From Psammoneis japonica (taxonomy: Eukaryota), in assembly GCA_008632985.1 (NCBI GenBank), contig QPGO01000017.1, forward strand, positions 496,001-560,000: a DNA stretch of 64,000 nt. The letters are read 5' to 3'. The notes below the pieces were generated by a model. That model saw only the letters and a list, made by a program, of their open reading frames with translations. It was not told the DNA's origin and did no database searches. Shown in pieces: positions 27,527 through 58,350 of this stretch. How positions within the stretch are numbered: position 1 is the stretch's first letter; each line of letters opens with the position of its first letter. The position numbers were made by a program, and so were the translations under genes.

Positions 27527-27696
27527 TTGCAAACTGCCGGCATCAGGGACAATCTAACAGACATCTAGGACAGATGACAATCATGTGCTAGATGAGAAAG
27601 AAAGTGAGCAAAAGAGAGATCATCAGATCTCTCAATGCTGTCTGTGCCAGTCTGTCCGACACAGGGGAGTGTGCTCCCCGTCTCGGATGTCTGCCA
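27527..27696 (-). repeat. 5' LTR of Copia #1
   Basis: Aligns with 20681-20840, with a 10-bp insertion. Confidence 0.88.
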
Positions 27697-32900: not shown

Positions 32901-35520
32901 ACTGGCGCACGCCCCTCGAGACTCTCACTGGCTCCACCCCGGACATCAGCCCATTGCTCCGCTTTCACTGGTGGGAACCCGTGTGCTGCCACCTCGATGA
33001 CTCCGATTGGCTGTCCGAATCCCGTGAGTTGCGTGGACGCTTTGTTGGCATTGCTGAGCACGTCGGCCACCAGATGACCTTCAAGATTCTCTCTGACGAC
33101 ACTCAGAAGATCCTCTGCTGGTCCAACGTACGATCCGCTGCCACCAATCCTGCCGCTTGAAACCTGCGTCTTGATCCTCCTGATGGGGAGCCACCTGAAC
33201 CCATCATCAAATCTCGCCATGATGACAACCCCGTCGATTCACCCAATGGGGAGATCAGGACACCCAAGATGCCAGTTTTCGACCCGCCAGACATCATCGG
33301 ACGCACCTTCCTCATGCAGCCACAAGAGGACGGACAATGCCACAGAGCTCGCATCGTCAAGGCCGTTGAAGACCACAAATGGAAAGTGAACGGCAACCCC
33401 GAGCTCACTGAGTTCGTCTGCTCTGTCAACAACGACGAATGCGAGGAAGTCCTGGCATGCAACGGCATCATGAATCACATTGAGCAAGAAGACGAAGACA
33501 CTGCTGTTTGGAAATTTCGACGCATTGTGTCACACGAAGGACCTCTGAAGCCTCATGACCCAACCTGGAAAGGCTCAAGCTACAACATCATGCTTGAATG
33601 GGAAAGTGGGGAGATCACGTCCAAGCCTCTTGCCATCATCGCCAAGGACGACCCTGTCACCTGTGCCATCTGTGCACGAGAGAACGGACTTCTCGACACT
33701 GATGGCTGGAAGCGGTTCCACACCATCGCGAGACGCCAGAAGAAGCCATTTCGCATGGCCAACCAAGCCAAGCTTTGCTCCTTCCGCACTGCACCTCGCT
33801 GCAAGTGCGGATGCGAAGTCCCCCAGAACTGCAAACATGCCATGTCACTGGACGAACGCAACGGCAACCGCAAATGGGGAGACGCAACTAATCTTGAGAT
33901 GGACCAACTCGATGAGTGCAAAGTCTTTCATGACTGCGGGCCCTCCGAGTCTTCCACTCCTCCTGCGGGACACAAGAAGATCCGAGTGCACCTGGTGCAC
34001 GACGTGAAACACGACGGCCGCCACAAGGCCTGACTCTTAGCCGATGGGCACCTCACAGATGCACCCATCAACAGTGTCCACTCCAGAGCAGTCTCCCTCC
34101 GTGGCCTTCGGCTGATGATTTTCCTGGCCAAACTCAACGAGTTGGAGACATGGGCTGCCGACATTGGCAATGCCTGCCTTGAAGCCACCAACAAGGAGAA
34201 ACTGCACATCGTGGCTGGACCCGAATTTGGCAAACTCGAAGGCCACATTCTTGTCATCCACAAGGCCCTGTGTGGACTGCGCAGCTCCGGCCTCCGCTGG
34301 CACAAGCGCTTTGCCGACTGCCTGCGAGCTGAAGGTTTCTTCCCCTGTCACACCAAACCCGACATTTGGATGTGCAGGAACGGCGACCACTGCGAACACA
34401 TCGCCGTTCATGTGGATGACGACCTTGCCATTGCCATGAAGGACCCTCAATCTTTTGTCGACACTCTCACAGAAAAGTGCAAGTTCAAGCTCAAGGGTGC
34501 GGGACCGATTGAGTTCCATCTGGGCTGTGACTTTTCCCGGGATCCTGACGGCACCTTGTGCCTGTCCCCGCGCAAGTGCATTGAACGCATGGCCGACAGC
34601 TGCACATGACTTTTTGGGGAGAAACCTGCCACCAACATCCTGTCACCTCTGGAGAAGGGTGACCACCCCGAACTGGACACTTCCGAACTGCTTGGGCCCA
34701 ATGGCATTCAACAGTTCCAGTCTCTTGTTGGTTCACTCCAATGGGCAGTGTCCCTTGGTCTAGTTGACATTGCCATGGCCGTCATGTCACTCTCTAGTTT
34801 CTGAGCTGCGCCCCGTCAAGGCCACTTGGATCATGCCAAATGCGTCTGTGGGTGCCTCTCCAAGATGTGACACGGTGCTCTCCGCGTTCGCACGGAAGAG
34901 CCCGACCATTGGATCTCCCTGCTCCGGCCCATGAATGGATGCATTCCATGTGCGGTGAAGCAGAAGAGATGATCCCGAAGGACGCTCCACCGCCCCTTGG
35001 CAAGTTCGTCACTGCCACCCACTGCGTCGATGCAAACTTGTGCCATTGCATGCTCACCGGATGCTCTGTCATGGGAATGCTCCACTTCCTCAACAAATTC
35101 CTGGCTGATTGGTTCTCCAAGAAGCAAGCCACCGTGGAGACTGCGACCTGCGGGTCTGAATTTGTTGCCGCAAGGACTTGTGTCGAGCAGATTGTCGACC
35201 TGCGCATCACCCTGCGCCACCTCGGCGTCCCGATCCGTGACGTCAGTTGCATGTTTGGTGACAACAAGTCGGTTGTAGACAGTGCCACCATCCCGCACTC
35301 CAAGCCACACAAGCGACACACCGCACTGTCGTTCCACCGTGTGCGTGAGGCAATTGCCTCTGGTCACCTTGAGCTCCACTTCATCGAAGGCTCCCGCAAC
35401 CCTGCTGACATTCTCAGCAAGCATTGGGGTCACTCCCAAATCTGGGACCTTCTCCGCCCCCTCATGTTCTGGAACTTCATTCCATCCGAAGTCGAATCTG
35501 TTTCTGTGACTCCTCAAGCA
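29943..35520 (+). pseudogene. gag-pol polyprotein of Copia #2, disrupted
   Basis: ORF pieces 29934-32789, 32297-33160, 33269-34033, 34115-34609, 34840-35583; frameshifts plus TGA stops at inferred CGA(Arg) positions (34031, 34607, 34802); Tyr nearly absent. Confidence 0.92.
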
Positions 35521-35530
35521 AACTGGGGAG

Positions 35531-35806
35531 TGACAGGATTTGAACAGGATTTGGGTGCACGCGAAATGTCGCGCGCTGTTTAGCCCACTGCGCACAGTTT
35601 TGTGTGCTTCAGTTCCGCACGCTCGCACGCGATGTAGTTTGCTTTCGAGCCACAAGGCTCACAAGAATGACAACAGTGGCCCGATCACACCAACTTGCAC
35701 GTCTTTCAGCTCCTGTGACGGTCTCTGAGCGGAGACTCATCTGCTGTTTAGACAGCAGCAAGGAGTTGTTGTTTGAATTCTTGCCATTTGCCTTCAATTT
35801 CTGTCA
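35531..35806 (+). repeat. 3' LTR of Copia #2
   Basis: 276 bp, colinear with 28733-29008. Confidence 0.95.
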
Positions 35807-36307
35807 GAGAGGGGGGGCCTCCAGCATTCACATGGGATGTGTGTGAGGTGTGAGTGATGAGTGACGACATCATCAAACACAATGCCGCAGGTTCCCAATG
35901 GGGGAGGGCAGGGGCTGTGTTCATGTTCATGGGAAGATGCACATGTGTGGCATTAAAAGCAAGTGACGAATGTTGTGCTCAGTGCACAATGTCTCATGTT
36001 TGAGGATGCTTCTGCTGCTGTCAGCATTTGTTGATGTGATGAATTTAAAGTCAATGAAGACACAAATGACATCAATTTGTCAGGTGCAAAGCACAGCACA
36101 ACTGACAAATTTTCGCCAGGAGACGACTCCATCACAAAAATCGCAGAACCCAGCGTGTCTCATGCACGTTGTTCTTGTTCTCATCTTGCTCGGAATCGTT
36201 TCAAGAGCCACGAACTTCCAAATCAGACAACTGCTGTTAGCATCGTAGGCACCAACAGCAATGTGCCAGCGAGGAATGACAGAAGTGGCTGAGATTTTTG
36301 ACAGAAA

Positions 36308-39300
36308 ATGGTGGTGCTAAATTTGTTGGTGCAACCGAAACCAGGCTACACGCATCCAAAGAAACTCCAACGTATTCAAGTGGACACTTCAGAACGAGTC
36401 AAAGATGTTGTCTCTAAACTCAAGCTTGAAAAGAAAGGAACTCACTTTCATGCGAATGGAGGTGAACTTCCCTTGAATTCTTCGATTGCCTCTCACAATG
36501 TTCAAGATGGAAGTGTCCTCGAGACTTGCAACTGTCCAGTCTTGTTGGCTGTCTTACCATCGGTTCTAAAAGATTTCAACGAGGTAGAAAAACTGCCAAA
36601 ACTGACGATTGAGGAGAAGAGTCAGTTCGCCCGCTTTTGGATGATGCACTTTTGCATCCGTGGCCAAACAGATGGTCACCCAATGACATCAAGTCCCGGA
36701 TCATCTGTTTGGCAACCATCAAGAAAGTGATTCAACGCGATGGTCGATTTGAAGTGGAAGCAATTCCTCACTGTCAAGATCTGCATTCCCTCTCTGAGTT
36801 CATGAAAACTGCATGGAACCGTGTCAATGCTGCACCCACCAGTCCAGATGGAACTCCGAGATGCCGAGGTGGTCACAACACAATGGCACACATTGTCAAA
36901 CCAACTTCTCGAAACCGAAATGGACAGCCAACTGCTTGTTGGGAGTTGCTGCAAAACAAACTGGACAAATGCCATCTTGTGGCAAGTCAGCTTGGCCCCA
37001 ATGAGGATGCCATCGAAGAATTTCTCAAGCAGGATTCGGCTGGACATGGCACACCATCTGCTGCGTCTCAATCCCCTTCTAGAATGAGACGCACTGCCGG
37101 AGAAGTGGCAACGCCCAGTGCAATGCGGCCACGCCAAAAGCTGGCGATGGCTCCATCACCAGGGCGAAGGCAGTCGACATCTGTCCAGTGCATTGGGTGC
37201 ATCGCTCAAGCAGAGTGTGCATGTTTGGCAGGCTGCCCCTTTCACAAGCAATTTTGTTGTGCCATGTGCTTTGTTGGCAATCACCCTCCCTTCCAACGCA
37301 ATCACGAAAATGTCCCACTCACCGATCGGAGAGTCAAACCACTCTTGAAGGAACAAAATCGCAGACCCTGCATCCCAGATTGTGCCTCGGGGGCACTCTC
37401 CATTCTACAAATTTTGCACCAATGTTCGAATCGCATGGACACAAACTTGCGGGAGTGCAGTCTGGCAGAAAGTCATCTCAAAAAGCTTGCTCAAGAAAAG
37501 TGTCGATCAAATCTCTACGACAGTCAGGCCCGTGGACGAACCGCCTTTGCGTGCGTGGAATCTCTGACAGACAAAGGATTTCTCCGCAAAGAACTCATCC
37601 CTGGATCGCGTGAAGCCAAATTCAGTCTGCTGCCTCCAGGAGAAACCATGGGGAAACAATGCTGTGAATTCGACCAAGTGCCACAGCGCATGCTTTTTAC
37701 TCAACCAATGCAGACAGAAAGGAATCAAGTCTGCAGTGGCCAGCATCATGCAATTCGATTGATCATCGACAACCGTGAAGATGCCACAGACGAGGACGTT
37801 TGGACTCAATGCATGTGTTTGACTACAAATTTTTAAAATGATCAATGAGACGACACTCGAAATTTAAAAAAAATCTCTGTTCACATGAGAGACAAATTTT
37901 CAACATGCAGCAACTTAAATTTATAAATTTTTGTCATTGTGTGTGTTTGCAATCATTGTCTAAAATGTGTGTGCTGTTCACAGAGATGCAAAACCAACAG
38001 TGCCGTTTTACACAAACTGCAGAGTTGAAGGGACGAACACATTTTGAATGTGACAGTGTCCCTTGTGTTAAAATTTTAAATTTTTTTTGAAATGAAAGAG
38101 ACGACATTTGACCATCCTTCGCGATGAAGCAGACTCGTTTCGTCGCACACACTTTGTTTCTCATAAATTTCGTTGCACAACGAATCCCCTTTTTCTTTCT
38201 CACCACCTGCCGGTTGGTGGCACTCCTTTGTTCAAGGACTGAAAGCAAAGATGGTTAGAAAAGTCAAGGGCAATTTGGTGGTTGAGGCTGCAGTCGTTCT
38301 GAGTTCTTGCTTTCAGGTGAAATCCGTTGTTGAGTTGGTCGAAAACAAACATAAAACTGCACACGAATGTTGTTGCTGATTGAGCCACTGTCTTGCTGTT
38401 TGGTTGTAAGGTGTCCCAAATCTGATGTCTTCTTCTAAAGTTGTCCCAAGAGCTGCTGGCTTGGGCATTGGGCTGGCTTTGTCACTGCTTTGGTGGTTCA
38501 CAACTACAGTCACGCTGTGTTCTTGCCTTTGAGTGAGATCCGTTGTGAAAACTGGTTGGAAACAACTGCGGAACTTCAAAGATTTTAAGAAATGGGTGTG
38601 CATGGCATTCCATGGCACGGCGACGCTCCAAGGCCCCGATGGCCAGGTGAACAACAACCAGATTTAGTGTTTGAGAAACCGAAAGCACCCTTCAAGTTCA
38701 AACCAGAAAATGTGAAAAGATGTGGATTGCTTTCTAAAAAGTGGAAGACAGAATCTGTTGACAGATTGGAAGCATCGGAAGCTGGTGCTCATGTGTCATG
38801 GGACAGACACAGCAAACCGCACTGTCAAATTGCTCGTTGTGATCATGGGAAACTTGACAAACTGGCGAAAGAACAAGGTGTTCCTGCAAACAGAATGAAG
38901 GGAACGTACATTGACCCTGGCAAGTTTGCACACATTGACCATGAAAGTGATTTTTGGCAAGATTGTTTTGCACCTCATTTGTCCAAGTTGGATGTCAAGG
39001 GATTGGTTGATGACATGTTGAAGTCTCATTCGGAAGACACTGGTGACCGCCTCAGGGGCAATGTCACTGCAGGCGGTGGATGTGCTTCACAAAACATGCG
39101 GTTGGGTGAAGAAGGAGCAACAGAACCTCAAGTCACTAAGGGGCTTGGGAAAGAGCACGCAGAAACAATGTGTTGCATGTCTGACATGCTTTGTGATTGG
39201 GTCGAGACAAGAACATTTCAAGCGAACAACAAGAGTTGCCAGCTGGGGAATGTCTCTTTGTGATTCAAAATGAAAATGGTGAGGAAAAAGTGCCACCCAC

Positions 39301-42131
39301 AGTTGTGGAACGAAAGTCTTGGAGTGATTTGGCCGATTCGGTCAGTGATTGCGGGCGCAGAAAAAAGCGACTTGACTGCGTTCGCATCGGGGGAGAAAGT
39401 TCATGCGAAGGTGGTTGCCAACTCTGTCGAATGAAACACAGTGGATGCAAAAGAATTTTGTTTGTCATTGAGGGTGCGCGTTGTCTTCAACGTGACAACG
39501 ACCAAAAATGTGATGCTGTGGAGCGTTGCCAATGCTGCAAGGAACTGGCGCAGCATCATGGATCAGGACTCGTTCAAGAAACTCTCGAAGGCACGCTTCG
39601 AACCTTGCAAATCAATCACAACTGCTTGGTTTTGTTTGCAAGAGGATGCAATGAAACGATCGATGTGCTCTTCATCATGCGCGAAATGCTGGCCGCGTCA
39701 ACCGATCGAGAGCCTTCACTGTCCTGTGATCAATGTTGTGCGAATGCTCGACGGCGCATTGTTCCAGAAAGTGACCCCTGTCACCACCCGCCTCTCATGA
39801 GAGGAAAGCTTCAGATTCACCAAGCGGAGAGTTTCCTCAGAAGAATGTGCCTTGGTCAACTTCGTGAATTCCAAAATGCAATTCACCACAACACTGATTC
39901 TTTGCCAGCCCCCAATCACAGCATCAACGAGGAAATTATCGAGATTGATGAAGAAACGCCCCAGAAACGCCCAAGGACAAATTTGTCAAGTGCAAAATCT
40001 GTTCAAGAAGTCACACTCTGTGACGACACCTCAAGCAATGACAGTGAGAGCGTCGTGGATCTGTTGAACGACTCCCAGGATGAGATTGAACTTTTGGAAG
40101 ATGGCGGGTGGAGCAAAGCCAAAGCGGCAGTGAAGAATCCGCTACAGAGATTTCAGGAGTGACGCCAGCAAGGTCTGGAAAGCAGCGTGCCAAGATCTCT
40201 TAGAAGCAGAAAGTCAACAGTTTGAACAAAGTGTTGAGAAGTGGCTTGAACAGCTGGGTTGGCACGAAGATGACGAGTGCCCTGTTGTGCCCAGAAACAT
40301 GATTTTGTTTTGGTGTGTTCATTTGCAACTGAGTGGAAATGCCATTGTTCAAATGGTTCGAACCTCAGCAGAGCTGGAAAGTTTCTAGGCAAAGTGGGGG
40401 TGCGCATCCAATGATGCGCTGTCAACAACACCCAGAGTCACGCAACGAGTTGGGTTGCTGGAACAAAGGCCAAGCGCAGCGAATCCCCCAACGAATCGAA
40501 CACCTGCGGCTGCCGCAAGTGGACGCACAGGCATTGAATCACATGGAACAGCTCAACGCACTTCTGCAACTCCAGCTCGACAGGCTCTTGACTTCCAAGT
40601 GTCCCAGAGCTGCATGATCTGTGAAATGGAAATGAGGGGACACGATCAATTTGAGACATCCTGCCATCATGTCTTTCATCTAGAATGCACCGTGAGTTGG
40701 GTTGAGGGGACTGCTGCTCGAAAATGTCCTCGCTGCAGCGCTGATGGAATTGGTCTCCCCAAACGAGCAAGGCCACCTGCAGCATGCATGCAGACAAAAG
40801 GTCATTTTTGTCACGCCCTTTGTGACATTTAAAGGCTGCAACACGTCGCCGTGATGCATCAACTCTTGTCAGTGGCTGCACATTGCACTCCTCCCCATGT
40901 GTCACGCGTCCATGCGGCTCTTTACCAACGTGCACTGAAAAACGGTTTTGGCAGAACAGTGTGGGCATGTGCGAAGGAACACGCAGAACTGCACAGAGTT
41001 TTGCGCGTTCGACAGTGATCAACGTTGCTGCAGACAACTCCCACTCAGGGTTTCGAACCCCTGGCCTCCTGCCTGATGGTTGCGATGAACCACTCCGCTG
41101 TGAATTCACAATGCAGCATGCATGCAAACAAAAGGTTGTTTTTGTCACGCCCTTTGTGACATTTAAAGGCTGTAACACGTCGCCGTGGTGCATTGACTCT
41201 TGCCAGCAGCTGTGCATTGCACACCACAAATTCCCAGGGGACAAGGCCCAATTGGACAGAGATCGGCACTGGCACAGGCAACTCCTTCCAAAGCATCGAA
41301 GCCTTCCATTCCGTGCAGGGAGAACGACTGCGCTCAAGTGGCCCAAGAGGCCCGTCTTCATCGCTTTGAACAGTCTGGTGAGATGCGCTGCAATTCTGGA
41401 GCAGCAACGGATCGAACCAGTGGCTCGCCTCGACGTGCCTCGAAACGAACCTGGAAATGTCCAAAGCACACCTTCGAAAATGGCATCATCATGGACACAT
41501 GTGAAATGTGTGAACAGCCAAAGCCAAATGCCGCTGTTTGGAGATGCGAAGAGTGCACTTTTGAAAACCTTGCAAGCACCTCAAACTGCAGCATGTGCAC
41601 TGCTGTCAATCCATTCTTCATCTGCCCCGAAACGGTTGACTCTCAAACATCATTTGCCACAGTTCCAGTGGCGAGAGGTTTGAATGAAGATCCGGTTGCC
41701 TCCGATTGTGGAAGAAACATTGCCCCGACAGTGCCACCAGCAATCTCATCAGGTCAAGGTCCAATGCCTCTGAGGAAAGTTGCCTGTGGCGCGCGCAGAC
41801 GTCAGGGCCACAATCGAACATCGGCGACCGCCGAAAACTGCCCTGCATTCAATCTGCATTCAATCATCCTAGCGAAATTGCCAGGCACCAGCAAAAACGA
41901 GCTCAAGCAGAGGAGCAAGCCAGACAGAAATGTGCAGATGCAACCCGATTTGCCACCGAAACAAATGATGCCCTAGAACGAAACAATGCTCTTCAAATGG
42001 AAATGCAGCGAATGTTGCAGCATTCGATCAGGCAAGACGAAGAGCTCAAGAGGATGCAGGCGGAAGAAGTCAAACGAAAGCAGAAAGCCGCTGAACAAGC
42101 AGAAAAGCGCGCACGATGTCTTGCAGATTGA
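36308..42131 (+). pseudogene. MUS81-like (ERCC4/XPF family) structure-specific endonuclease pseudogene with extra domains, split by an insertion
   Basis: Ubiquitin-like N-terminus; Mus81 winged-helix-like segment (RPCIPDCASGALSILQIL..LAQEKC..TAFACVESLTDKGFL); RLIIDNRE; ERCC4 core ELPAGE..VVERKSWSDLADSVSDCG..FVIEG; RING (CMICE..CHHVFHLECTVSW..CPRC); two RanBP2 zinc fingers (WKCPKHTFEN..CEMC, WRCEECTFEN..CSMC); several frameshifts. Confidence 0.75.
37795..39200. mobile_element. Insertion interrupting the ERCC4 domain (probable transposon fragment with AT-rich end)
   Basis: Unrelated sequence between the DNRE motif (~37770) and ELPAGE (~39230); A/T-run-rich segment 37800-38200 and foreign ORF fragment 38592-39263; no TIR/TSD identified. 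Confidence 0.45.
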
Positions 42132-42149
42132 AGCCGCCCACTGGGGCCC

Positions 42150-43270
42150 CACAGACATTTTCAAGTCAAGTTTCTCATGTTGACGACTCTCGCCTTGGTG
42201 CGGTGGCTTGTGTTCAAGGATTCGACTTCGAAGTTCCTCGATTCTCTCGGTGCCCTCCGAGTCCTCAATGTTTGAAAATGCTTCGACAACCAAGTCGAAA
42301 GTGACTTTGGTTGGCTTTTGATCTCGATCACCAGCAAGATGCTGCAAACACACAGTGAGGAGTTGGTTGGCCGCCTGGCTGTTTGTCACTGGACGTCCGA
42401 ATCTGATGCTGCAGCTGCTGCAGATGTCATGCAGGCCTTGATTGTTGCTGTGCAACTCACAGCATTTGGTTTGGCACCAAGATGCCCACCAACCAAGAAC
42501 AAACTGGTCATTCTGCACAAAATTTCGTCTGCATTGCGCCCCGATTCGACACTCTTCGAGTTTGCATGAGCGTTGACACGTGTTGAGCACGAAATGACGT
42601 CTGGCCACAATGACTCATTGTTCCATCATTTTGAGCAGTTGCGTCACTTGGTCTGCATTGTTCTCTCTTAGGAAATGCATTTGAGCATGCATTGTAAACG
42701 AATGTGTTCGGCTTGACGTTTTCATGCCCCATCTGGTGACTCTGTGCATTTCCTGAAGAATTCGGGCTGCTTTGTCAGTGGACTCAGGGTCGCTGCAACT
42801 CTTCCATTCTCAAGAGGAGCCTTGCAGCATGATCTGCACAGTTCGCTTCATGGCTTCTTGCCATTGAGTTGATCACCAAGTTAAATTTCCTGGCGTCTGG
42901 CTTCAACTCAGGGTCTTTTGACTCCAAATGGGCTTCCCAAAGTCTCTCCATTGTCTTCTCAGTGCATTTGTGAGCATCTTTGGATGAAGATCTGACCCAT
43001 GGTGTGATTGCTGAGTTGCAAGCAATGTAATTTGGCTGCACAAATGCACAGTCCTCAAGATCCAATTTGTTGCCAACATCTTCTTCACTCTCTGATGATT
43101 CAGATGACAGCTGAGCAACCCAGTCTAAGAGAGCTTCGGCCTTTTCTGTGGCATCTGGCTGCCAACTTTGCACCCAAGCATTGATGAAAGCATTGAATGT
43201 GAAAACATTTGGATGAATCTCTAACTCCAAACCCATTTGGATGTCTTGAAGCTTCTTCAGAAGCATTTCC
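42150..43270 (-). pseudogene. Pentatricopeptide-repeat (PPR) protein fragment, decayed
   Basis: PPR-like motifs PNVFTFNAFINAWVQS, PNYIACNSAITPWVRS, PDARKFNLVINSMARS, PNTFVYNACSNA, PDVISCSTRVNAHANS spread over several frames. Confidence 0.8.
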
Positions 43271-43308
43271 TTGATTTTGGCCGCTGGGTGCTTCTGGACG
43301 TGTTTCGA

Positions 43309-44128
43309 GCCTCAGTTTTGACAGCGCACTTTGACTGTTGGGATGCCCAGCAAATGCCATTGTGATGACAATGCTGTCAAAGCAGCCACTTGAATGTAAG
43401 GCAAATCTTCCACTTTGCCATGGACAAGCTTCACATTGCCACAGCAAGTGCCACGTTGTTGAAGATTGCATCTTGCAATGGAAACAAGTTTCTCACTTCG
43501 CTTGACTCCACGTGTCTCATGTTTGTCAGCATGCTGTGCAAGAAGATCCCCATTCCAAACAACACCTCTAGAACAGGTGGACCTCCAATGGGCAGATTTT
43601 CATGCAGCCATCACAGGTTCCAGCAGTTTTTGTGTGTGTTGTGTTGAGCTGATCTGCAAAAGAGGCTTTGTCTGCTGGGCTCCTCGGAACAAACAATGTC
43701 GCTGCAAGATTCCTTGTTTCCCATCATGTGCTCTCTCTCTCTCTCTCTGGCTCTAGAGCTAGAGAGAGAGAGAGTGGAAAGTGGTGAGTGTTGTTGTCTC
43801 ACATTTGCTGCTTTCAGGCCAAGAATGTGGAGTTCGCATCTGCTCTCGATCAGTGACAACGCAGGGGGGTGAGGCGAGTTCGTTTCGAACTTCGTGAAAC
43901 TGATTGTTCAGTGAAAAATGCTTGAACTGATGCAATGCCTCAAGCTAAGTTTTGATGATGCCCCATAACATAGCGTCGTCCTCCATTCTGATTGACAAAA
44001 TGAAAATGAAATGACGCAACGGGAACTCCAAACTGGCGGATGAACTTGGTCGGACGGGTCGCAGGAAACTTTTTCGCGCCATTTCTGACACGAAAAAGGC
44101 GCGCATGACAACCCGTGACACGGGCTTC
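43309..44128 (-). pseudogene. Decayed direct duplicate of the methyltransferase 5' part and its upstream region (paralogous to 12681-13493)
   Basis: Colinear alignment by eye; translates to MGNKESCSDIVCSEEP and GCFDSIVITMAFAGHPNSQSALSKLR versus MGNKESRGDIVYSEEP and GYFDSVVITMAFTGYPDSQRAMSELR. Confidence 0.93.
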
Positions 44129-44219
44129 GCTTTTCGATCAACTTGAAACTCATCCCACAAAGAAAAAGAGAGAAAAGGAAAAAGATACACGAGATTCAAC
44201 AGCGTACAGTAGAACGAAA

Positions 44220-44624
44220 ATGACGGAGCTACACGGACACGGCGACCCCTTGTTGTCGGTTGCTATGAAAGACAATGTGATCTTGAAGGCGAAAGAGGAC
44301 GCGACGACGGGCCAGGTGGTGGATCACTCAGCCGGAGGACACGGTGATCCCCTCTTTCAGGAGGCTCTGGGGCGCTCTCCACCGAAAGCGCCCTTGCATA
44401 AGGAGTTTGAAGGACATGGTGATCCACTCATGGAGGAAGTCGAGAAGACGTGGGAGGGGATCCCTGCAGAGAAGAAGAACTTGAATCATCACGATGTGGT
44501 GCACACCGAGTTTCAAAGCCACGGCGATCCTTTATTGAAGGAGCATTGCAAGCCTGCCGAGAACTATCCTCGCGACAAGGCCGCTGAAAAGCCGCCAAAT
44601 TGGAGGAGTGTATTCGGATTCTAG
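44220..44624 (+). CDS. Small hypothetical protein (134 aa) with four (G/S)HGDPL repeats
   Basis: ATG at 44220, normal composition; GHGDPLL, GHGDPLF, GHGDPLM, SHGDPLL. Confidence 0.75.
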   Translation: MTELHGHGDPLLSVAMKDNVILKAKEDATTGQVVDHSAGGHGDPLFQEALGRSPPKAPLHKEFEGHGDPLMEEVEKTWEGIPAEKKNLNHHDVVHTEFQSHGDPLLKEHCKPAENYPRDKAAEKPPNWRSVFGF

Positions 44625-45213
44625 CAGCTCAAGTACAGTTTGAGGGCATGATGTGATTTAGTTGAGGAAACGTTTATCCAAGTAGAGTGACAGAAGGATT
44701 CCATTGTTTAGAAACACAAGCTGAATAGTCACACTTATTTTGCTTTTCGCTCAATCCTAAAATGAACTTGTGAGCTGACTTTCAGTTTCGCGTAGAGTTC
44801 CTCTTGGTTCCACCGCCTGAAGCTACCAGAACTTGCGGAATGTTTGCAGATCCGCCATCGGGACCACCACTGCCTTGCTCAACCCTTCCTAGTGAATTTA
44901 TACTCTGTTTCGAGATCTGTGCCAATGTTCCGAGACAAACATAAATCAAGGCGGTATAGATCCTGTCAGAGCAGAGTCGTTGTTTCGTGCGCCGGAAGCA
45001 CCTCGCTGTCCCCTCGTCACCGAATCATGCGCAAGGTCAGACAGGCATGTTGTCGCAGTTCGGCAGTACAACAACTACAACTGGAAAAGACAATCCGTAT
45101 AATTAAGGCTCAGATCACTAGAGTAAAATAGTTAAATCCTTCCTCACGAGCGCCAAACCATGTGTGCAGCCACGGCAAAGCACACGAAACGCAGCCAAGC
45201 ACACAGACACATT

Positions 45214-45831
45214 CTAACGGTAACGCTTGAGACGCTGCGTGTTGCGACGAAGCCAGGCAGCACGGTAACTTCCTCCGATAATTCCATTGGCACGGTGTCC
45301 ACGCTTGCGGAGACCACGAGACTTGCGTCCAGCACTGGTAAGTCCACGGCATTCGCGGTGCTTGTGCACCGGGTTGACAATCCAGTTGATGCGTGGGTCG
45401 TTGCGGATCTTTTGATGAGAAGGATCCACCAAAATGATTTCGTAGTACTTCATGGTAGCATCTTGGTTAATCCAGTACGAGTTAAGGACGCGAAGGTTGG
45501 CGTATTGACGTCCCACCTTCTCTTCAGCTACACTCTGCAAATTACGTTCAAACTTGAGTTGGTTAATACCCTGGTGCTTGGGCTTACCCCAGACCATACC
45601 ACGGTGGTTCTGGCGCTTGCGTCCTCCGCGGCGAACACCGACACGGACAACAACATATCCCTGCTTGGCCTTGTATCCCAAGCGGTGGGCCTTGTCGGTA
45701 CGGGTGGGACGGTGAAGACGCACCATCTTGGGGCGCTGACGGTACTCCCACGCACGGACGCGGAACAAGAATCGGAGAGCATCCGATTGCTTGTGGCGCC
45801 AAAGCTCCTCCATATACTTGTAGCCTCCCAT
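45214..45831 (-). CDS. RPL15: 60S ribosomal protein L15 (eL15)
   Basis: [57 protein letters not shown]. Confidence 0.98.
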
Positions 45832-46621
45832 GATTTATGAGTTCTAAAGTATAACAATGGCAAACAAAAGCACAAGGTCAGAATGATTGACGCGATGAGA
45901 GAGCATCACTTTTTCCATCCAACAACGGGTCATGAGCAGCGTCTTCCGAAACAAAAATTGTGCCGATTCCGCTTCTGCATCCCACTGTCTCGCACACATG
46001 CTTTCAGAGGGACATTCTTCTAGCTTCTCGTGGTCAAAGTTCAAACGATCATTCCTCTGCTGTGACTGCCGACGGCGTTTCATCATCGTCATGTTGCTAC
46101 GTACCGCTTGAGAAATTGTCTCAAGTCTGTGGGGTGCTGCGGTGCTGCGGTACAATGTTTTTATACGAAGGCTACATACGTTACTTTCTACACAGGATCC
46201 TGGTACTGAGTTGTACCACTTACTAAATTGAAACCTACGTATCGCAGTACCAGGCTTCACGTAGGTGACCGCCTGCTCAGTGATCCCGCCGGCATCATCT
46301 TGTTGCACGTCGCGTTGTTTCGCAAGAAGGTATGACAACAACCATGGCGAATGTCAAAGTCATTCTGCGTCTTTTGTCCTTCACATACTGATACGATCGA
46401 TAATGATGTGTTTACGAGAGTTCTTTGCTTTGATAGTGCCTGAAAAGAGGACCGACACGTCGTACACCGTTTTTGCAGACCATGGTGGCTGTCGTCGTGG
46501 TTGTTCGACGGACTGGTTGCCAGACGGCCTATGGAATCGAAAAATAAAGAGCACAACCCGCGCCTTTTTCTCACGATTGTCATTGTTTTCCTTGTTGACT
46601 TAGTTCAAGTTTTGATTCAAA

Positions 46622-47068
46622 ATGGTTCAAGTTTCCGACTCCCTCGTTTGGGAGCTTACTAAGAAGAACACCAGCTTTATGAGGAAGGTAAATGGCCGCA
46701 CCAAGCGCTCGGGATGTGTCAAGTTTTCGACCGAAAAGGGAAACGTCAAGAACCTTTCTCTCTTCAAGTACTCAGGTCTCGCCAACAGCAAGGCTGTCGA
46801 TGTTGTTTGCGCAGACGACAACACCGCTGAGCTCATTATCAAAACTGCCTCCAAGGCACACTCCTACCCGAAAAAGGGACAAGCCACCATTCCCGTCAAC
46901 AAGCACTTTCGTCGGGTGGAAAAGACCATCAAGTCGCAAGCGATTGATAACTACTACCGTCCTGATTTGAAAGATGCCGTTCTTGCCAAGTACACCAAGG
47001 TTTACCAAGCCAACAGAATTGCCAAGGGAACGAAGAAGCCTGTGCCGGTCAAGAAGGGACGTAACTAA
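46622..47068 (+). CDS. RPL28: 60S ribosomal protein L28 (eL28)
   Basis: SDSLVWELTKKNTSFMRK..FSTEKGNVKNLSLFKYSGLANSK..YYRPDLK. Confidence 0.93.
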   Translation: MVQVSDSLVWELTKKNTSFMRKVNGRTKRSGCVKFSTEKGNVKNLSLFKYSGLANSKAVDVVCADDNTAELIIKTASKAHSYPKKGQATIPVNKHFRRVEKTIKSQAIDNYYRPDLKDAVLAKYTKVYQANRIAKGTKKPVPVKKGRN

Positions 47069-47649
47069 ACAAAACACGATATGTTATCGACCACAGAGTC
47101 TTTGCTACTCTTTTCACTTTTTCGGATTTGTACGCCTGAGTAGGTTGACTGGATTTTTGTGTTTAAGCCCATACCAATATAGACTAGTGCATTGGCCTCT
47201 ACCAGGTATGGCAAATCTACTTGCTAGCGAACAAGGCTTGGACCTCGCCGGTCGCAGCAATAGTAGTTCATCGTTCGTCGACACTCGGGAGGTCAGAAAC
47301 TGCAATCGCACAAAGACTCAAGGACATCGTAAGCGGGAGAGAGAAAGCACTGTAGAGTGTGAACTGGTCGAGACGAAGAAGCTCTAGTAGAGCGTTTTTC
47401 TGATCCACAAATCATCTTAAAGCTAAACCAAGGGGACTGCAAATAAGGATGCTGCGAACCGCCTGCATGCTACTACCCCGCGGAATCATAAGCACCTTTA
47501 AGATGTTAACTTAATATTTACTTCACTAGAGCTTTGATGAAAATAGCTCTTACACGGCTGGGCTACACTGCCGCATTAGACAACCATGGTTCCCATGCAC
47601 TTCAACAAACATATTCCAAAACCATACACCAAGCTGATGCCAATAACGG

Positions 47650-49912
47650 CTAACCATAAAAGAACGTCGTCGTCCCCGTTCCGAGAATTGACGTACGCGA
47701 ATACTTTCGGTCGTCCTTCATTTTCAGGTACTGGCTGTAGATAAACCTCATGTTAAGCAAAATCTCTTCGAGATTCTCGGGAGAAAGCTCCTTCTCTTCC
47801 GTGATAACTGGAAAAGCCGACATGATCATCTGCTTCATAATGATGGGATTCGTGTACGCAAAGTATCCCTTGTCTTGAAGATAGTCGGCAAACCACTGAC
47901 CAAGCTCTTTGTAGATCTCATCTTCCACTTCCGGATCGACTTTGAGAGACTTGTTGGCTTTTTCGCATATCTCGGGCAAATCTTCGGGGTTTTTGACAAT
48001 GCCCGCGAGAGACCGCTCCGTGTTGCTTTTCTGATAGCGAAACGCCTCGAGGGCTTCGCGACGAAACGTGCCCATATTCTGCTTGTCCTCCTCGTACGGG
48101 CGTACGTGCATGACGAGGTATTGCTCACCTGTTTCTTGACGTTTCCTGTTGATCTCCTGCAACGCATCCTGGGCAACAAAACTGCCACGAAGTGCCTTCT
48201 CAACAACGTCCTTGTCTTCTCCGGGCAACGCTTTGTAGCCAGCCTCCACCTTCTTGGCGCAGGACCAAATCCGGGTCGACACATGAGCGGAGCGTTGACC
48301 ACAGCAGCGCACATACTAATTGCAAATCCACACCAAATTGCGGCGAAGTTCCTGCTTCATCCGCCATGATGCCGAGAACCCACGGGGCAAAGGCGGTTCC
48401 AAGGTTCATAAAAGTACTGTTGAGCCCCTGAACGTATCCACGCTTCTCGCGAGGACTGATCATGTCTAACATGGGCTTGTCGATAACTGACTGAAGACTG
48501 TCGTGGGGAAACCCAAGTACATGACAAGAATAAAGCCAACCATGACCCCAGTGGATGCAGTTGGTACTGTGCCGAGTATCAACAAGATTACAGTCACAAT
48601 ACCAGTACAGACATTGCCCATAACGCAAGCGGCTGCCGCGCCAATCTTCTGGTAAACCCAAGGAGTTACCATGGCGGTAGGAATGACAACAAGAGCTACC
48701 AAGACTGAAAGCCACTTGTAACCGTTGAGAGAAAGCAAAGGATTTTCTTCAAAGTCGGCGTAGAATCGATCGAACATGAGCGGGGACAAGCACAAGGGGA
48801 ACAAGCCAGCACTGCCGATGTTATCGAGCAAAGCGCCAATGATAATGTTCCACAGGCAGCACCGGTCAATCTCCTTGGGCCCGGTGTCTTCTTCTTCTTC
48901 TTCCGACAGGACACCGGCCTGATCAGTCGTCATAACCTTGATATCTCCAGGTTCCACCAAAAAATAGAACATAAGCGTTCCTGCTAAACACATCATGGCT
49001 GCACCAACCCAGAGGGGCGCAAAAAGCCCAGTCGACGCCATCAAAATAGCAATGATACCACCTCCGGACTGGAAGGAAACACATGGTGAATGAAAGAAAG
49101 CAAGCATTAGTGTCACCCGTTCGTTCAAGCTCACAACTAAGCTCCAAGGAGTCAAATTCGAAATTCGTACTAACCTGTCCAACAACAAAGCAAGTTACAA
49201 TCAAACCAAACTCATACTGTTTCTCTTCATTTGTGCGAAAGACATCGCCAACTGTGCGGTGGCAACAACACCAAAAATGTCAGAATCCGAGCCTTTGCAG
49301 AATACCTGAACAACACGTACACATACCATAAGCCAAGGCCACAGGAAGCGATCCGGACACAAGCCCGTTTCCGAAACTGGCCATGCAGAAGCCCCAAAAG
49401 GAATTTCGTAAAAGCCACTTCGCGATACTTCCAATGGCCGACCCAAACATACTAACAAGTAGAACCGGTTTACGGCCTATCTTGTCTGAAAGTCGGCCAG
49501 AGTACAAGCCCGCAATGGCGATACCCAACAACGCAAACATGGGCATTGCATAGGTTGCAGTGCTGAAATCGAAGGGACTTGTGCTCGAAAACGAATCAGG
49601 ATCGGCGCCCGGAGTAACCATAATGGGATAATTCGGTTGCAGAATGGTGGAGTTCATGGCATCGGCGAAGATGCCGAATTTCAGAACGAGCAAACTGTGC
49701 TTGAGAACTTTTTCACTCGACACAAGTTGCTGATAGCGGGCGAGCGGAGAGTTGAAGTTGAATCGACCAATCTTCATTGACGACATCATTGATGATTCAA
49801 CATCCATGGCCTCACCACCCTTTCCGGCTTCGACATCTGACATTTTGACATCTTCCTCATGGACCTCTACGGACTGGCTTGCTTTCTTGCTCTCGTCGGC
49901 GGGAGAAGACAT
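47650..49912 (-). CDS. Major facilitator superfamily transporter, multi-exon, with soluble C-terminal extension; exon boundaries approximate
   Basis: MFS motif A GRLSDKIGRKPVLL; hydrophobic helices across ORFs 49280-49912, 48466-49188, 48200-48715 and 47650-48312; pieces do not join in one frame, so introns (or an indel) are needed. Confidence 0.8.
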
Positions 49913-50399: not shown

Positions 50400-53300
50400 G
50401 CACCTTCCGTTGAGAGTGCTGTTAGTGAACATTGTTGGCTGTGTGTTGATCTGTTGGAAAATGCTCAGTTGTGGTTGCCACGGCGCCGTTTGAAGAATTT
50501 TGAGTCTGAGCTGAGGAGCAAAAATTTGGGTCTGAGCAATTTTCTCCACAAGAACAAGATTCAGCATGCTCAGATCTCCTCAGAAGCAGCTCACAATGTG
50601 CATGCTGCAGCTGGCTTGCTCTGTGGGCTCTGTCACACAAGTGCAGCAGTGCTTTGACTGGCTGCATTTCGGGTCGTGTGTTTCGAGAGCCGCTGGAGTC
50701 GTTGTTGGCCCTGAGTGGAACAGCCTCTCTGCTGGCATTTGAGCACAATCATTCAACTGCTGTGCACATGCAGCTCTTCATAAATTGTGCTGGACATGCA
50801 CTTGAATTTGTGCAAAATCCCACAATGACGCAACTCCATTTCTGCGACGACAGGTGGAGATGCGTGCCACCCAAGCTGGTGCACATTGTGAAAGACATGA
50901 AAGAGGGAATCCTCTTCACTTCCTTGGTGATTTTTGTCAACTTGTCTGAGTTTCACAAACCAAAAAAACAGTGAAAGCATCAGTTTGTCAATTGCTGCAA
51001 GCTGCATGCTCCCATGTCATGATGCCTCTGATCTCTTGTGCCTTTCCCACAGCTTTTTTTGTTGGCATGTGTGGAGTTCTGGGCTTTGTTGGTGCCTTCC
51101 TGCAATGGCATCATTGTTGCCAGCATGTGCTGCTTGGAGCATCTTGTGTTTTTGTGCTGTTTTGTGTGGCGGCAATGTGTCTTTTGTGCCATGAACCCAA
51201 GCCAGTTAGCCCAGTGATATGGCTCACATCATTTTGCAATCATTCATTTTTTCAAAGCCTTTCATCACATGTGTTTTGGAAGGTTCAAATCATTTGAAAA
51301 ACTTGAGTGAGACATTTGATGATGTGTTTTGTTTGTGAGCTCTCACTCATTTGGGAGCAGCTGGATGTCAGCACAGCAGCTTCCAGATGAGCCACAGGGG
51401 TGCTGCACCAGCTGCAGCACCTTCTGCCAAAAAGTTTTTTTCCTTCCTGACAAGTGGTTGCCTGTGCCAGTGCAGTTGTGTGCTGTTGCAGCCCCATGTC
51501 ATCTTGTCCCCAGCAGGTTGATTCAGACTTGAGCTTTCAAACTTCAGAGTGAAGTGGCCCCACCGCCAGTCCAATTACACAGAGCCAACAAACCAAAAAG
51601 AAGCAATGGCAGGCCAAGGGCGCTGGTGGTCTTTGGTGGGTCCCAGGTGACGCTTTAAGAACTGTGGTCAAGCAGTGAAAGCAGGCTGGCATTGTGCAGT
51701 TGTGGCACCTTGTCACATCCTCTCAGCCAGCAGCACACTTCTTCAAACTCCCAACTCATGAGCAAATGGACCCTGCATGATCATGGTGCCAGCCAACCCA
51801 AAAGCAGCAATGTGGGAGAACTGGCAGTCTCTGGTGGACCCTGCACAACATTTTGAGAGCCATGTTTGAGCATTGCAAGGTTGATTTTGTGGTGTTGTGG
51901 CCGCATGTCACCTCATCCCTGACAAGTGCAGACTTGAGTTTCCAAACTCCTCCAGAGCAAAAAGACCCCACGACAGTGTCAACGTGTCTGGTGGAGCCCA
52001 AGCAACAGAACTGTGGCTGAGCACTGCAGGGTTGATCTTGTGGTTTTGTGGCCCCATGTCACCTTGTCCCCAACAGCAGCAGCAGCAGCAGAAGACAACT
52101 TGCAACAGTTTCCAAACATCAGAAGAGGAGTGAAAGGGCCCCACAACAGCACCAACCAAACTGACAACAGCAAGCTGAGGATGATGCTGGTGGCAGTGTC
52201 CAGTGGGCCCCAGATGGCACTTTGAGAAGTTTGGTTGAGCATTGCAAGGTTTGGATCTTGTGGCATTGTGGCCCCATGTCACCTTGTCCCCAACAGCAAA
52301 AGACCTGAATTTTTCCAAACTCCAGAGTGAAGGGCACCATGACAGTGCCAGCCAACCTGACAACAGCCAGCGGAGGACACTGGCAGTCTCTGGTGCCCCC
52401 AGGTGACACTTCTTTGAGAACTTTGGTTGGGCATTGCAAGATTGATTTTGTGGTGTTGTGAACCCTTGTCGTCTTGTTCCTGACAGAAGCAGACTTGCGA
52501 ACTTCCAAATTCACAAGCAAAAGAACCCCATGAGAGTGCCAGCCAACCTGACAACAGCCAGCTTGGGGACCACCGGTGGTCTCTGGTGGGCCCCAGGTGA
52601 CACTTCAAGAGTGCCAGTGGCTTGGCATCGCAAGATTGATTTTGTGGCATTGTGGCCCCATGTGTCACCTTGTCCCCAACAGCAGCAGACCACCCTTGAA
52701 TTCCCAAACTCCAAAGTGAAAGGACCCCATGAGATTGCCAACAAACCTGGCAAACAGCCAGCTGATGGCACTGGTGGCATCCAGTGGTGGGGCCCACAAG
52801 ACAGTTTGGGAGCTGTTGCTGAGCATTAAAAGGTTGATCTTGTGGTGTTGTGACCCCATGTCACCTTGTCCCCAACAGCAGAAGACTTGAATTTTTCCAA
52901 ACTCCAGAGTGAAAGCACCCCTTGACAGTGCCAGCCAACCTGACAACAGCTGGCTGAGGGCACTGGCAGTCTCTGGTGGGCCCCATGGGACACTTGAAAA
53001 ACTGTTGTTGCTGGGCATTGAAAGGTTGATCTTGTGGTGTTGTGGCCCTTGACAGGAGCAGCCTTGAATTTCTTCCAAACTTCAGAGCAAAAAGACCCCA
53101 TGAGAGTGCCAGCCAACCTGACAACAGCCAGCTGAGGACAGCAGTGGTCTTTGGTGGACCCCAGGCAACAATTTGAGAACTGTGTTTGAGTGTTGCAGGG
53201 TTGATCTTGTGGCATTGTGGCCCCATGTTACCTTGTGCCTGGCAAGAGCAGACTTAAAGAACTCCCAAACTCCAGAGTGAAAGGACCCCATGAGAGTGCC

Positions 53301-56300: not shown

Positions 56301-58350
56301 TTGAGATTTTTGAAAAAAATTGTGGCACCTGTGAAGAGCAGTGCAATCACACGTTCAAAAATTTTCATTTCCTGTCCATGATGAAGCACAAGAACACATT
56401 GCAGATGTGTGCCGCTGCTGCAAGACCTTTTCCAGCCAGAGCTGTGCTGCCTTGGTTTTGTCAATGTGTCTCTCTGCTTTTGGTCCCTCAGCTGTGATTC
56501 TCTGTCATCACCTCCTCTCCTGGTGCTCCAAGCTTGCAACAAGAGGTCCTTTTTACGTGCACCTGTGCCAGCCATCAGCAGACACCATGAAGCATGTGGG
56601 CAAGTGGAAAAAGCTCTGCTGAGAGGCTGACAAAAAGCAGGTTGGCAATTCTGGCACTCTGAACATGCCCCTTGCCCTGCTGCTCCTTTGCTGCATGGCC
56701 CAGCAGCCAGCTGCTCTTCCCATGCCCTGTGATTGACACCACCTTTTGTCTTGCCCCACACTGCTCCTCTGCTGCTGCCACCACTCAGTCAGACCCATCA
56801 GCTGTTTTGGCCACCAGGGTTCTTTCTAGATTGCCTCAACTCCCAAGAAGGCATTCACAGCATTTGTTGGCAGGTCCTTCAAAATCACGCATGCCAATGA
56901 ATCAAGCCCCACTTCCCAATTGTGGTTCATCAGAAATGTCCAGCCAATCCAGCAACACAAGGCTTGCAATGCTGCAAAAGCAGACATGCCATGCTCTTGG
57001 TTGTGAACAAGAGAGCACCTTCAAAGGATCAACAGTTTTGCACACAATCAACAGCTTGATCCTTGTCTGTCCTTGTCAACACCCAACCAATCCCCAAGAA
57101 CACAAGAAATGGCCTGGCACATGCAAGTGCACTCCAAAAAACAGCTGGCAACAGCAAAAACAGAAAGAAAGCCAACCAGCACTTGCAATTCTAAGAGCAT
57201 TGCAATTGCTCACCTCATGTTGCATTCACTGTGAGCGTCTCATCCCTGGGGGGTTGAGATTTGACGAGAGCACAATGAGATCCATGTGCCTTCCATCTGG
57301 TCATTTCAAGTGCCCCAGATTCTCTGTCACAGATGCCTTGTCAAATTGACTCATTTCTCATTGCTGCTGTCCAGACATTGACACTTTCATTCATGGCAAT
57401 TTGATCCTAAAACATCATTGTCAATTGGTGCTGTTGTCTTTGCCATCTGATTGTTCATTGGAAAATGACTGTTCATGAACATTTTCCAGCTCCCCACCAC
57501 AAAAAGCACTTGAAATTGACTTTTTGAAATTTGCCTTGCCACGGCTCAGAAGGATCAGCTGCTTCCTCTGACATTGTCATTGCTGAAATGTTCAAGAACA
57601 TCAATGATGTTTTTCCTCTCATTGGCTTGTTGAACGAAGGAAGTGAAAAATGGCAGCATTTTGTGCTTTGCTTGCCAAGAAACAAACATGCCAAGCTGAC
57701 AACTTCTCTGCTGGTGTTTTCTGTTAGGGGTTGCTGTCTTGTCTTACAATGAAAAGCTGTCACAAAAACCAACACTCTTTTAAACAAGAAAGATTGGAGC
57801 ATGAGACGATGTGCCATCACAGCTGAGAGTGGCGCCAAGATGTGAGACAAATTGTGAGAGACATGGAGCAATGGCTTGAAGAACAGAGAGACAAAAAGCA
57901 ATGGAGTGACAACAGCATGGAGTGACAGCACATGCAACATAATGTCAAACATTGCTGGGCAGAAAGCCAGCATCATCAGAACCACATGGCCAAAGCATGT
58001 CGTGCCAGCTGACAAACAAACAAATCAATTGTTGGCATGCTCCAGCCAATGAACAACAACAATCAAAGATTGCTTGGGTCTGGTGCACAGAAATGAGCTG
58101 TGTTTTGTTCATTTTTGTTTCCCACTTTGCCAGTGTTTGACCAGCTGTGAACACACAAAAACCCGCGGCAACTGCACTGGGAACAGCCAATGCAATGTGA
58201 GACCAAATTTCCGCAAGAGTGGTTCCTGCAATGCCGATTTGGTTGCCGACATTTGGTTGCCTGTAAAAAGCCATTCATTCACAATGAAAGAGCAGCCAAC
58301 AAGAGAGAGGCAGGTTTCTGCGTGCTCATGAACCGCTCAAGACCTGGGCT
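50400..58350. other. Degraded TpA/CpG-depleted block D
   Basis: Very few TA or CG, strong TG/CA excess; contains the tandem array. Confidence 0.8.
51450..54780. repeat. Diverged tandem array, ~190-200-bp unit, about 15-17 copies
   Basis: Recurrent gagcattgcaaggttgatcttgtggtgttgtggccccatgtcaccttgtccccaacagcag..ccaaactccagagtgaaaggaccccatgacagtgccagccaacctgacaacagccagctgag near 51868, 52237, 52430, 52624, 52821, 53013, 53188, 53378, 53575, 53767, 53961, 54231, 54431, 54637. Confidence 0.92.

Follow-up and report, generated by a model that had tools for sequence, protein, structure and literature searches.

Region-confined transition hypermutation of a truncated methyltransferase duplicate in a diatom transposon island

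Why would one copy of a duplicated gene segment be riddled with transitions while its partner on the same chromosomal stretch is left untouched? The question is raised by 64,000 nucleotides of the diatom Psammoneis japonica (NCBI GenBank assembly GCA_008632985.1, contig QPGO01000017.1, positions 496,001 to 560,000 of the forward strand), referred to below as the window, in whose own coordinates all positions are given. The window holds two copies of part of a methyltransferase gene and its upstream DNA, copy A (12678-13493) and copy B (43306-44128), and most of copy B lies inside a 30-kb transposon island from which the dinucleotide step TpA (TA) has been nearly purged. The explanation favoured here is that the in-block part of copy B (43306-43935) has probably undergone transition hypermutation in place, targeted to the genomic domain in which it lies, together with a separable decay of CpG (CG) steps.

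Fates of TpA and CpG steps in the two copies

Local alignment pairs the two copies on the same strand, and the pair is the eighth-best match when the window is compared with itself by BLAST. The alignment begins at 12678 and not at 12681, where an earlier note on this DNA had placed the start of the homology. The same note called 12681-13493 the functional copy, which is imprecise: the intact coding sequence runs on the minus strand over 12445-13131, and upstream DNA makes up 13132-13493. The intact gene is an open frame of 229 codons for a class I S-adenosylmethionine (SAM) methyltransferase of the UbiE/Methyltransf_11 type (Pfam Methyltransf_11, E=2e-17), with TA and CG at 0.51 and 0.94 of expectation. 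Copy A, a segment of ~816 bp, comprises its N-terminal ~151 codons plus 362 bp upstream; a gap of 250-420 bp separates it from the left edge of the 30-kb block, outside which it lies. Copy B falls into two parts. The in-block part, on the minus strand, is a truncated and frameshifted methyltransferase pseudogene with ~215 bp of its upstream DNA; it reaches no further than about codon 151, has lost 37 bp (A 12961-12997), contains several small indels and shows TA at 0.07-0.14 of expectation. The out-of-block tail (43936-44128) is homologous to copy A with 89.6% identity, and hypermutation is absent from it.

The fate of each dinucleotide of copy A was counted across the aligned in-block part (B 43306-43935), which comprises 589 aligned bases with 105 mismatches, 79 of them transitions. 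All but one of the 18 TA steps of copy A are lost in copy B, nine having become TG, six CA and two another dinucleotide. CG steps fare similarly, with 28 of 36 lost (11 to TG, 10 to CA and 7 to other dinucleotides) and eight kept, as against 53-88% kept for the remaining fourteen dinucleotides. Counted per base, 19 of 37 TA bases are changed versus 35 of 274 other A/T bases (odds ratio 7.2, P=3e-7), and 28 of 72 CG bases versus 23 of 206 other C/G bases (P=8e-7). The idea that TA sites are substituted no more often than other A/T sites, which the earlier note had named as fatal to its own account, is contradicted by these counts. The change is thus specific to TpA and CpG, and it has acted on both strands, as the outcomes comprise 20 TG and 16 CA. 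Just four TA steps are present in the 630 bp of in-block copy B, namely one retained, one new and two within a 37-bp insertion. The substitution examples quoted in the earlier note are all found in the alignment, including the TA example that begins cat-A-ttt (~12890-12912 in copy A versus 43518-43540 in copy B), and the CpG to TpG/CpA changes it described account for 21 of the 28 lost CG steps.

The direction of change was polarised at the codon level with 40 homologous proteins, the nearest of which are 60-68% identical and too distant for site-by-site polarisation of DNA. The polarisation applies to amino-acid-changing coding sites only. Among the 137 gap-free codons shared by the copies, 81 are the same in both, 14 show a synonymous difference and 42 encode different amino acids. 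At these 42 replaced codons the outgroups are closer to copy A in 33 cases and to copy B in four, with five ties. Tyrosine is encoded by TAY codons only (Y, pyrimidine), which makes it the cleanest probe of TA loss. Seven of the eight gap-free Tyr codons of copy A (codons 12, 30, 37, 77, 81, 126 and 139) read TGT/TGC (Cys) or CAT/CAC (His) in copy B, although 25-100% of the outgroups have Tyr at these positions and Tyr is invariant at codons 30 and 37. The eighth, codon 122, holds the sole survivor of copy A's 18 in-block TA steps. For CpG, Ser67 (TCG) and Thr70 (ACG), two outgroup-invariant residues in the SAM-binding glycine-rich stretch, have become TTG and ATG in copy B. Judged by these homologs, TG/CA in place of TA and TG/CA in place of CG are derived states of copy B, and copy A represents the conserved state. 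The direction TA to TG/CA claimed in the earlier note is thereby upheld by proteins, as is its statement that mutation is limited to the in-block copy: the outgroups side with copy A, whose TA and CG are normal, and the copy outside the island was spared.

Some further features of the copies may be mentioned. The 37-bp insertion of copy B (43734-43770) is composed of a run of (CT)n, a short palindrome, CTAGAGCTAG, and a run of (GA)n. Copies A and B form direct repeats that flank the entire 30-kb island, A outside its left edge and B across its right edge, an arrangement that suggests an 816-bp tandem duplication later separated by nested insertions. The truncation point of copy B is adjoined by an open frame (42787-43311, minus strand) with a marginal match to pentatricopeptide (PPR) repeats (E=2e-4) that falls below the Pfam cutoff. 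A bias towards the sense strand was considered and dropped: the polarised Tyr codons gave 7 TG and 4 CA on the sense strand, and compositional skews of the Copia elements described below confound the odds ratios.

The border within copy B and the purged blocks

The hypermutation ends abruptly inside copy B. Conversion of TA is last seen at 43931, and retention begins with the TA at 43946. This sets the right-hand limit of the hypermutated domain ~280 bp upstream of the start codon (ATG, ~44222) of the following open frame. Over the 193 homologous bases of the tail, 2 of 2 TA and 10 of 13 CG steps are kept, and comparison of the in-block and out-of-block parts by Fisher's test gives P=0.016 for TA, P=8e-4 for CG and P=9e-6 for both combined. 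At non-target bases divergence from copy A amounts to 58 of 480 (12.1%) in the block and 14 of 131 (10.7%) in the tail. As the process stops within ~15 bp at a border unrelated to the ends of the duplicated segment, its target would be a genomic domain. The remaining block borders lie 170-800 bp from coding sequences. At the left edge of block 2, TA steps occur every 8-30 bp up to 8298 and the next follows at 8688, leaving 390 bp without TA. A tRNA-Ser(AGA) gene (8157-8241) is located 57 bp from this sharp edge; tRNA genes serve as heterochromatin barriers in other eukaryotes.

Four TA-purged blocks were defined from 2-kb odds ratios and a map of TA-free gaps, the expectation being calculated from base composition. 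Block 1 (1768-6050) has TA at 0.048 and CG at 0.20 of expectation, and block 2 (8298-10491) has TA at 0.028. The 30-kb block (13916-43946, its left edge falling between 13740 and 13916) contains 154 TA in 30,031 bp (0.082), with CG at 0.48 and TA-free gaps that reach 979 bp, while block 4 (50423-58264), which includes a satellite, has TA at 0.058 and CG at 0.116. Taken together, the four blocks (44,350 bp) hold 201 TA versus 2806 expected (0.072), with CG at 0.39, TG at 1.73 and CA at 1.66; the 19,650 bp outside them have TA at 0.565, CG at 1.02, TG at 1.19 and CA at 1.16. The GC content is nearly equal, 0.496 in the blocks and 0.478 outside, because AT-to-GC change at TA balances GC-to-AT change at CG. 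The depletion of TA is even over the blocks (0.03-0.08), whereas CG varies between 0.12 and 0.48 among blocks and between 0.06 and 0.84 among 2-kb bins, and on account of this difference the two processes are treated as separate. Regionally, CG stands at 0.66-0.84 over 28001-36000, where a GC-rich Copia element lies (GC 0.51-0.58), and at 0.06-0.13 over 14001-22000 and 52001-58000; the 2-kb bins of all three regions alike show TA at 0.02-0.13. Non-coding spacers outside the blocks have TA at 0.22-1.06 and CG at 0.85-1.3 of expectation. In conceptual translations Tyr makes up 0.12% of residues in the blocks versus 2.51% outside, the blocks being richer in Cys, His, Gln and Trp, and long open frames are common there because only TGA stops remain.

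The transposons of the 30-kb block reveal that the mutation occurred in place. The two long terminal repeats (LTRs) of one element are identical at insertion, so that differences between them arose afterwards. In a Copia-type LTR retrotransposon on the plus strand (28730-35807; LTRs 28730-29009 and 35528-35807; RVT_2 domain 34034-34606) the LTRs differ at 30 of 280 positions, all by transitions (15 A/G and 15 C/T). Of these differences, 25 fall in pyrimidine-purine (YR) steps, as 7 CA-versus-TG doubles, 6 CA/CG, 2 CG/TG and 3 CA/TA; such CA-versus-TG doubles are the expected result when one ancestral TA (or CG) is converted twice independently. The translated RVT_2 frame is without Tyr and reads ..NACLEA.., ..ALCGL.. 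and ..HIAVHVDDD.., positions at which Ty1/Copia reverse transcriptases presumably have Tyr. A second Copia-type element, on the minus strand (20681-27698; gag_pre-integrs and integrase SH3 domains at 22797-24497), has terminal repeats (20681-20842 and 27527-27698) that differ at 11 positions, again all by transitions and with 2 CA/TG doubles. Similarly, the 190-bp satellite of block 4 (51475-54772) consists of 16 to about 17 monomers with a 389-bp higher-order period. Two adjacent columns were scored as a bimorphic site if 3 or more monomers had one dinucleotide and 3 or more had another that differs from it in both letters. Twelve sites qualified; 8 of these are CA/TG, where 72 types of dinucleotide pair are possible, and one of them retains TA in 2 monomers. 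The monomers are just 66-82% alike, mostly through CA/TG alternation.

Cellular-type genes have met the same fate. A decayed full-length copy of an ERCC4-RING-zf-RanBP gene, a diatom family of ~1370 aa, was located by tblastn on the plus strand (36308-42128). Six family members together cover residues 1-1371 in frames 2, 1, 2, 3, 1 and 3; the copy contains an in-frame stop as well as a 1.4-kb insert, and the Pfam matches to an ERCC4 nuclease domain and a RING finger belong to this one gene. Its ERCC4 frame of 321 aa contains 0 Tyr. Four columns have Tyr in 60% or more of 28 homologs, and in this frame all four read Cys (TGT/TGC), while other conserved residues are largely retained. Protein comparison thus establishes the same Tyr to Cys conversion in a second, independently polarised gene copy, and the claim of the earlier note that duplicates of host genes are hit is sustained by this copy as well as by the methyltransferase. 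The family, with its ERCC4 nuclease, RING, zf-RanBP and zinc-knuckle domains, is conserved in diatoms, and its members often occur on metagenome contigs of 5-9 kb. The pseudogene is interrupted by a very high-copy repeat (40672-41339) with a k-mer depth of ~56,000 versus ~63 in its flanks and with many transition variants. Pfam searches of 79 long in-block frames gave a match for six, and viral families were not among them.

Outside the blocks, the genes of the window are compact and mainly single open frames. One of them (260-1597), identified through Pfam, codes for the RNA polymerase III subunit RPC5. Among its named relatives the best, with 37-42% identity, come from Epithemia, Bacillariaceae, Cylindrotheca, Nitzschia and Seminavis, and further matches reach 58%. 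Judged by sequence, the window was assigned to the nuclear DNA of a raphid pennate diatom.

Target and chemistry of the mutation

In the favoured explanation, region-confined transition hypermutation would have acted on island DNA in place, after the duplication, changing A:T to G:C at TpA steps and yielding TpG or CpA depending on the strand. A second, separable process would have turned CpG into TpG/CpA, as happens to methylated cytosine. Any content of the island would be affected, be it retrotransposon, satellite or decayed gene, and the target would be a genomic domain, probably of silent methylated chromatin, and not paired homologous copies. The net effect would be irreversible inactivation, as neither a Tyr codon nor a TAA or TAG stop can remain. 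That the domain is silent and cytosine-methylated is inferred by analogy with other diatoms, the transposons of which carry DNMT5a-dependent CpG methylation according to PMC9998398. The view put forward in the earlier note, that targeting follows a domain and not homology, is in keeping with the spared tail, the spared copy A and the even loss of TA over 30 kb of unrelated sequence; the domain would in that view be one of chromatin. Foreign ancestry alone would not be the trigger either. The closest homologs of the intact methyltransferase are bacterial-type UbiE-like proteins of ~213 aa (60-68% identity), the named ones all bacterial, and the gene was probably acquired in an old bacterial gene transfer, yet it is free of hypermutation.

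Several points weigh against this explanation and should be considered. The description of the blocks as chromatin domains, or as heterochromatin, is read from sequence. The spared tail contains just 2 aligned TA steps, so that the statistical weight of the border comes mostly from CG. Part of the sparing of copy A could reflect selection, because damage to an essential copy would eliminate the lineage that carries it. The outcomes in copy B are not clustered by strand (17 runs versus 18.8 expected, P=0.32), which leaves a processive single-strand enzyme unsupported. In a contig derived from sequencing reads (described below) there is no excess of variants in the block, with 3 in-block and 4 out-of-block sites. 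Further, when metagenomes were scanned with the alignment of the ERCC4-RING family, 22 loci were obtained, of which two are identical and six match the zinc knuckle only. The ERCC4-RING relatives at these loci have TA at 0.49-0.77 of expectation, and TA-purged blocks were absent from them: 0 of 248 1-kb windows fell below 0.2, and the longest TA-free gap was 200 bp. It should, however, be noted that these loci are gene-centred and short, and are silent on the transposon islands of other diatoms. Finally, CpG decay accompanies TA loss here, and the main text of the preprint on the closest known system, discussed below, contains no CpG component.

As for the chemistry, enzymatic deamination of adenine in DNA (A to inosine, which is read as G) is the leading though tentative proposal, made by analogy with the chlorarachniophyte Bigelowiella natans. 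A 2026 bioRxiv preprint by Mettrop et al. (10.64898/2026.01.13.699255) describes TpA-only A>G/T>C hypermutation in mutation-accumulation lines of this alga. The lines yielded 231 new mutations in two regions of integrated viral DNA; 230 were A>G or T>C, always at TpA, and the rate of ~6e-7 per site per generation was ~1000-fold above background (10.64898/2026.01.13.699255). Its authors propose an ADAT2-like DNA adenine deaminase (10.64898/2026.01.13.699255). In the window, the context of surviving in-block TA steps, compared with that of TA outside, is biased. YTAR (R, purine) is enriched, with TTAA 6.1-fold, TTAG 2.6, CTAA 2.5 and CTAG 2.4, and RTAY is nearly gone, with no ATAC left and GTAT at 0.07, ATAT at 0.14 and GTAC at 0.32. 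This pattern suggests that RTAY is the preferred site and possibly an extended recognition site of the responsible enzyme. The context bias is presented as a new detail, although the motif may already stand in the mutation-context supplement of the B. natans preprint.

The main alternative to adenine deamination retains the domain targeting and changes the chemistry. TET/JBP-type oxidation of thymine at TpA to 5-hydroxymethyl- or 5-formyl-uracil would cause mispairing with G and T to C change, which in double-stranded DNA is indistinguishable from A>G at TpA on the opposite strand. Moreover, of the YR steps just TA and CG are self-complementary, and thymine is chemically 5-methyluracil; on reasoning alone, a single enzyme directed at 5-methylpyrimidines could thus in principle act on both. 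TA loss and CG loss are, however, uncoupled between blocks, which speaks against one enzyme for both, and thymine oxidation is regarded as rather unlikely.

Homology may also be suspected as the trigger. Repeated transposons could be recognised by a mechanism like fungal repeat-induced point mutation (RIP), and copy B could then be affected by leakage from its repeated neighbours. The blocks do hold repeats, namely the two Copia elements, the satellite and the repeat at 40672-41339 with its k-mer depth of ~56,000, and diatoms are reported to have DNMT4 enzymes related to RID, the RIP factor of fungi (PMC9998398). The asymmetry of the duplicated pair argues otherwise, as copy A is untouched and the homologous tail of copy B is spared, whereas RIP is described as striking both copies (PMC2621366). 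Further, TA loss is even over 30 kb, including the ERCC4-RING region, which is mostly of about single-copy k-mer depth (63-67) and is raised only at 38334-39335 and at the repeat 40672-41339. The hypermutated nucleocytoplasmic large DNA virus (NCLDV) region of B. natans is likewise given as single copy (10.64898/2026.01.13.699255). Leakage of this kind is thus an unlikely cause.

It could be argued that nothing is targeted at all: a genome-wide bias would remove TA and CG everywhere, selection would preserve them in genes, and the blocks would merely be neutral DNA at equilibrium. Indeed, the blocks occupy most of the intergenic space, and normal composition is confined to genes and flanks of 170-800 bp. 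This account is very improbable, because the non-coding spacers outside the blocks retain TA and CG at the levels given above, the tail of copy B is 10.4% diverged from copy A, hence not under strong constraint, and yet keeps both steps, and borders are abrupt, as in the 390 bp without TA past 8298.

Editing of retroelement transcripts by an ADAR-like RNA adenosine deaminase, fixed by reverse transcription, has in its favour that ADARs prefer a 5' U (10.64898/2026.01.13.699255) and that two retrotransposons lie within the block. It is nevertheless hardly tenable, as both strands are affected equally (20 TG, 16 CA), the satellite, promoter DNA and a non-retroposed gene duplicate are affected too, the LTR divergence arose after insertion, and the border falls within one contiguous duplicated segment.

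The last concern is the reality of the sequence. Modified bases can give systematic miscalls in some long-read chemistries, and an assembly or base-calling artefact from modified bases in heterochromatin would imitate a mutated block. A 6965-bp read-derived contig (k-mer depth 63) matches 41166-48000, a stretch that takes in copy B and the border, and departs from it at 7 letters and by 1 gap; the underlying run probably comes from the assembly's own sample and does not amount to independent biological replication. Contigs of a second run, of unrecorded library type, cover 44170-48000, which is non-block DNA, and the repeat at 40883-41105. An artefact is scarcely credible given that the read-derived contig reproduces block, copy B and border, that block DNA also has indels, frameshifts and ~12% ordinary divergence, and that a symmetric miscall would not yield clean TG or CA states.

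Relation to known systems and significance

The closest parallel to the process in this window is the hypermutation of B. natans. In both, TpA is converted to TpG or CpA by strand (here in 15 of the 17 changed TA steps) and the effect stays within separate regions that stand out strongly from the remaining DNA (here TA at 0.072 versus 0.565, with the border at 43931-43946). As reported in the preprint, the B. natans process affects silent or foreign DNA and needs no repeat partner, and the process in the window would likewise need none. In the long term it leads to TA depletion with a gain of CA and TG, and the blocks show the same depletion and gain. The two cases differ in several respects. 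The host here is a diatom, a stramenopile, and B. natans is a rhizarian. The degree is more extreme here, with TA at 0.03-0.08 over 44 kb; in the preprint the NCLDV region of B. natans is at 0.45 and the cluster cutoff at 0.43. Here it is not viral inserts that are hit but retrotransposons, a satellite and decayed cellular genes, and the present evidence is end-state sequence, while in B. natans fresh mutations were caught in the lines.

Other systems share some of these traits. Like RIP, the process is transition-only and dinucleotide-specific and irreversibly inactivates transposons and gene duplicates. RIP, however, is a C to T change, mainly CpA to TpA, by which TA is gained and GC lowered, while here TA is destroyed and GC is unchanged; also, RIP mutates both duplicates, and here mutation is limited to the copy within the island. 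The loss of CG resembles the decay of methylated CpG, as CG goes to TG/CA (21 of 28 changes) and the loss is limited to islands of transposable elements (TEs), with block CG at 0.12-0.48 versus 1.02 outside; TEs of diatoms are reported to be cytosine-methylated (PMC9998398). Such decay would leave TA loss unexplained, and CG loss varies four-fold between blocks, whereas TA loss is uniform. With the deaminase editing of animals (A-to-I by ADAR, C-to-U by APOBEC) the process would share the use of hypermutation as a defence. Unlike ADAR and APOBEC, which act on RNA or single-stranded intermediates and on one strand, it affects resident double-stranded chromosomal DNA of any origin and on both strands.

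Hypermutation directed at C-to-T change is well established as a genome defence, in the form of RIP in fungi and APOBEC in animals. A:T-to-G:C hypermutation aimed at TpA has, in the literature covered, one earlier report, the 2026 preprint on one alga. No report of TpA-directed mutation in a diatom was found in a full-text search that took in few subscription journals. The window presents a saturated end-state of the TpA process in a diatom, a member of a major phytoplankton group with genetic tools. It supplies a polarised before-and-after pair, proof of change in place and a border of ~15 bp within a single duplicated segment, and with these, evidence that location, rather than repetition or foreign origin, determines what is mutated. 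There are practical consequences as well: TA-free islands contain long false open frames and encode no Tyr, and they will mislead gene callers and the dating of transposons by LTR divergence.

Collectively, these findings permit a broader reading, to which we give somewhat less than an even chance. Diatoms would possess a domain-guided DNA base-editing defence that erases TpA, and with it every Tyr codon, in silenced islands, independently of the decay of methylated CpG. This would be the same system as in the chlorarachniophyte and hence old within the supergroup of stramenopiles, alveolates and rhizarians (SAR), and its context preference, with RTAY hit hardest and YTAR, above all TTAA, spared, could serve to identify the enzyme.

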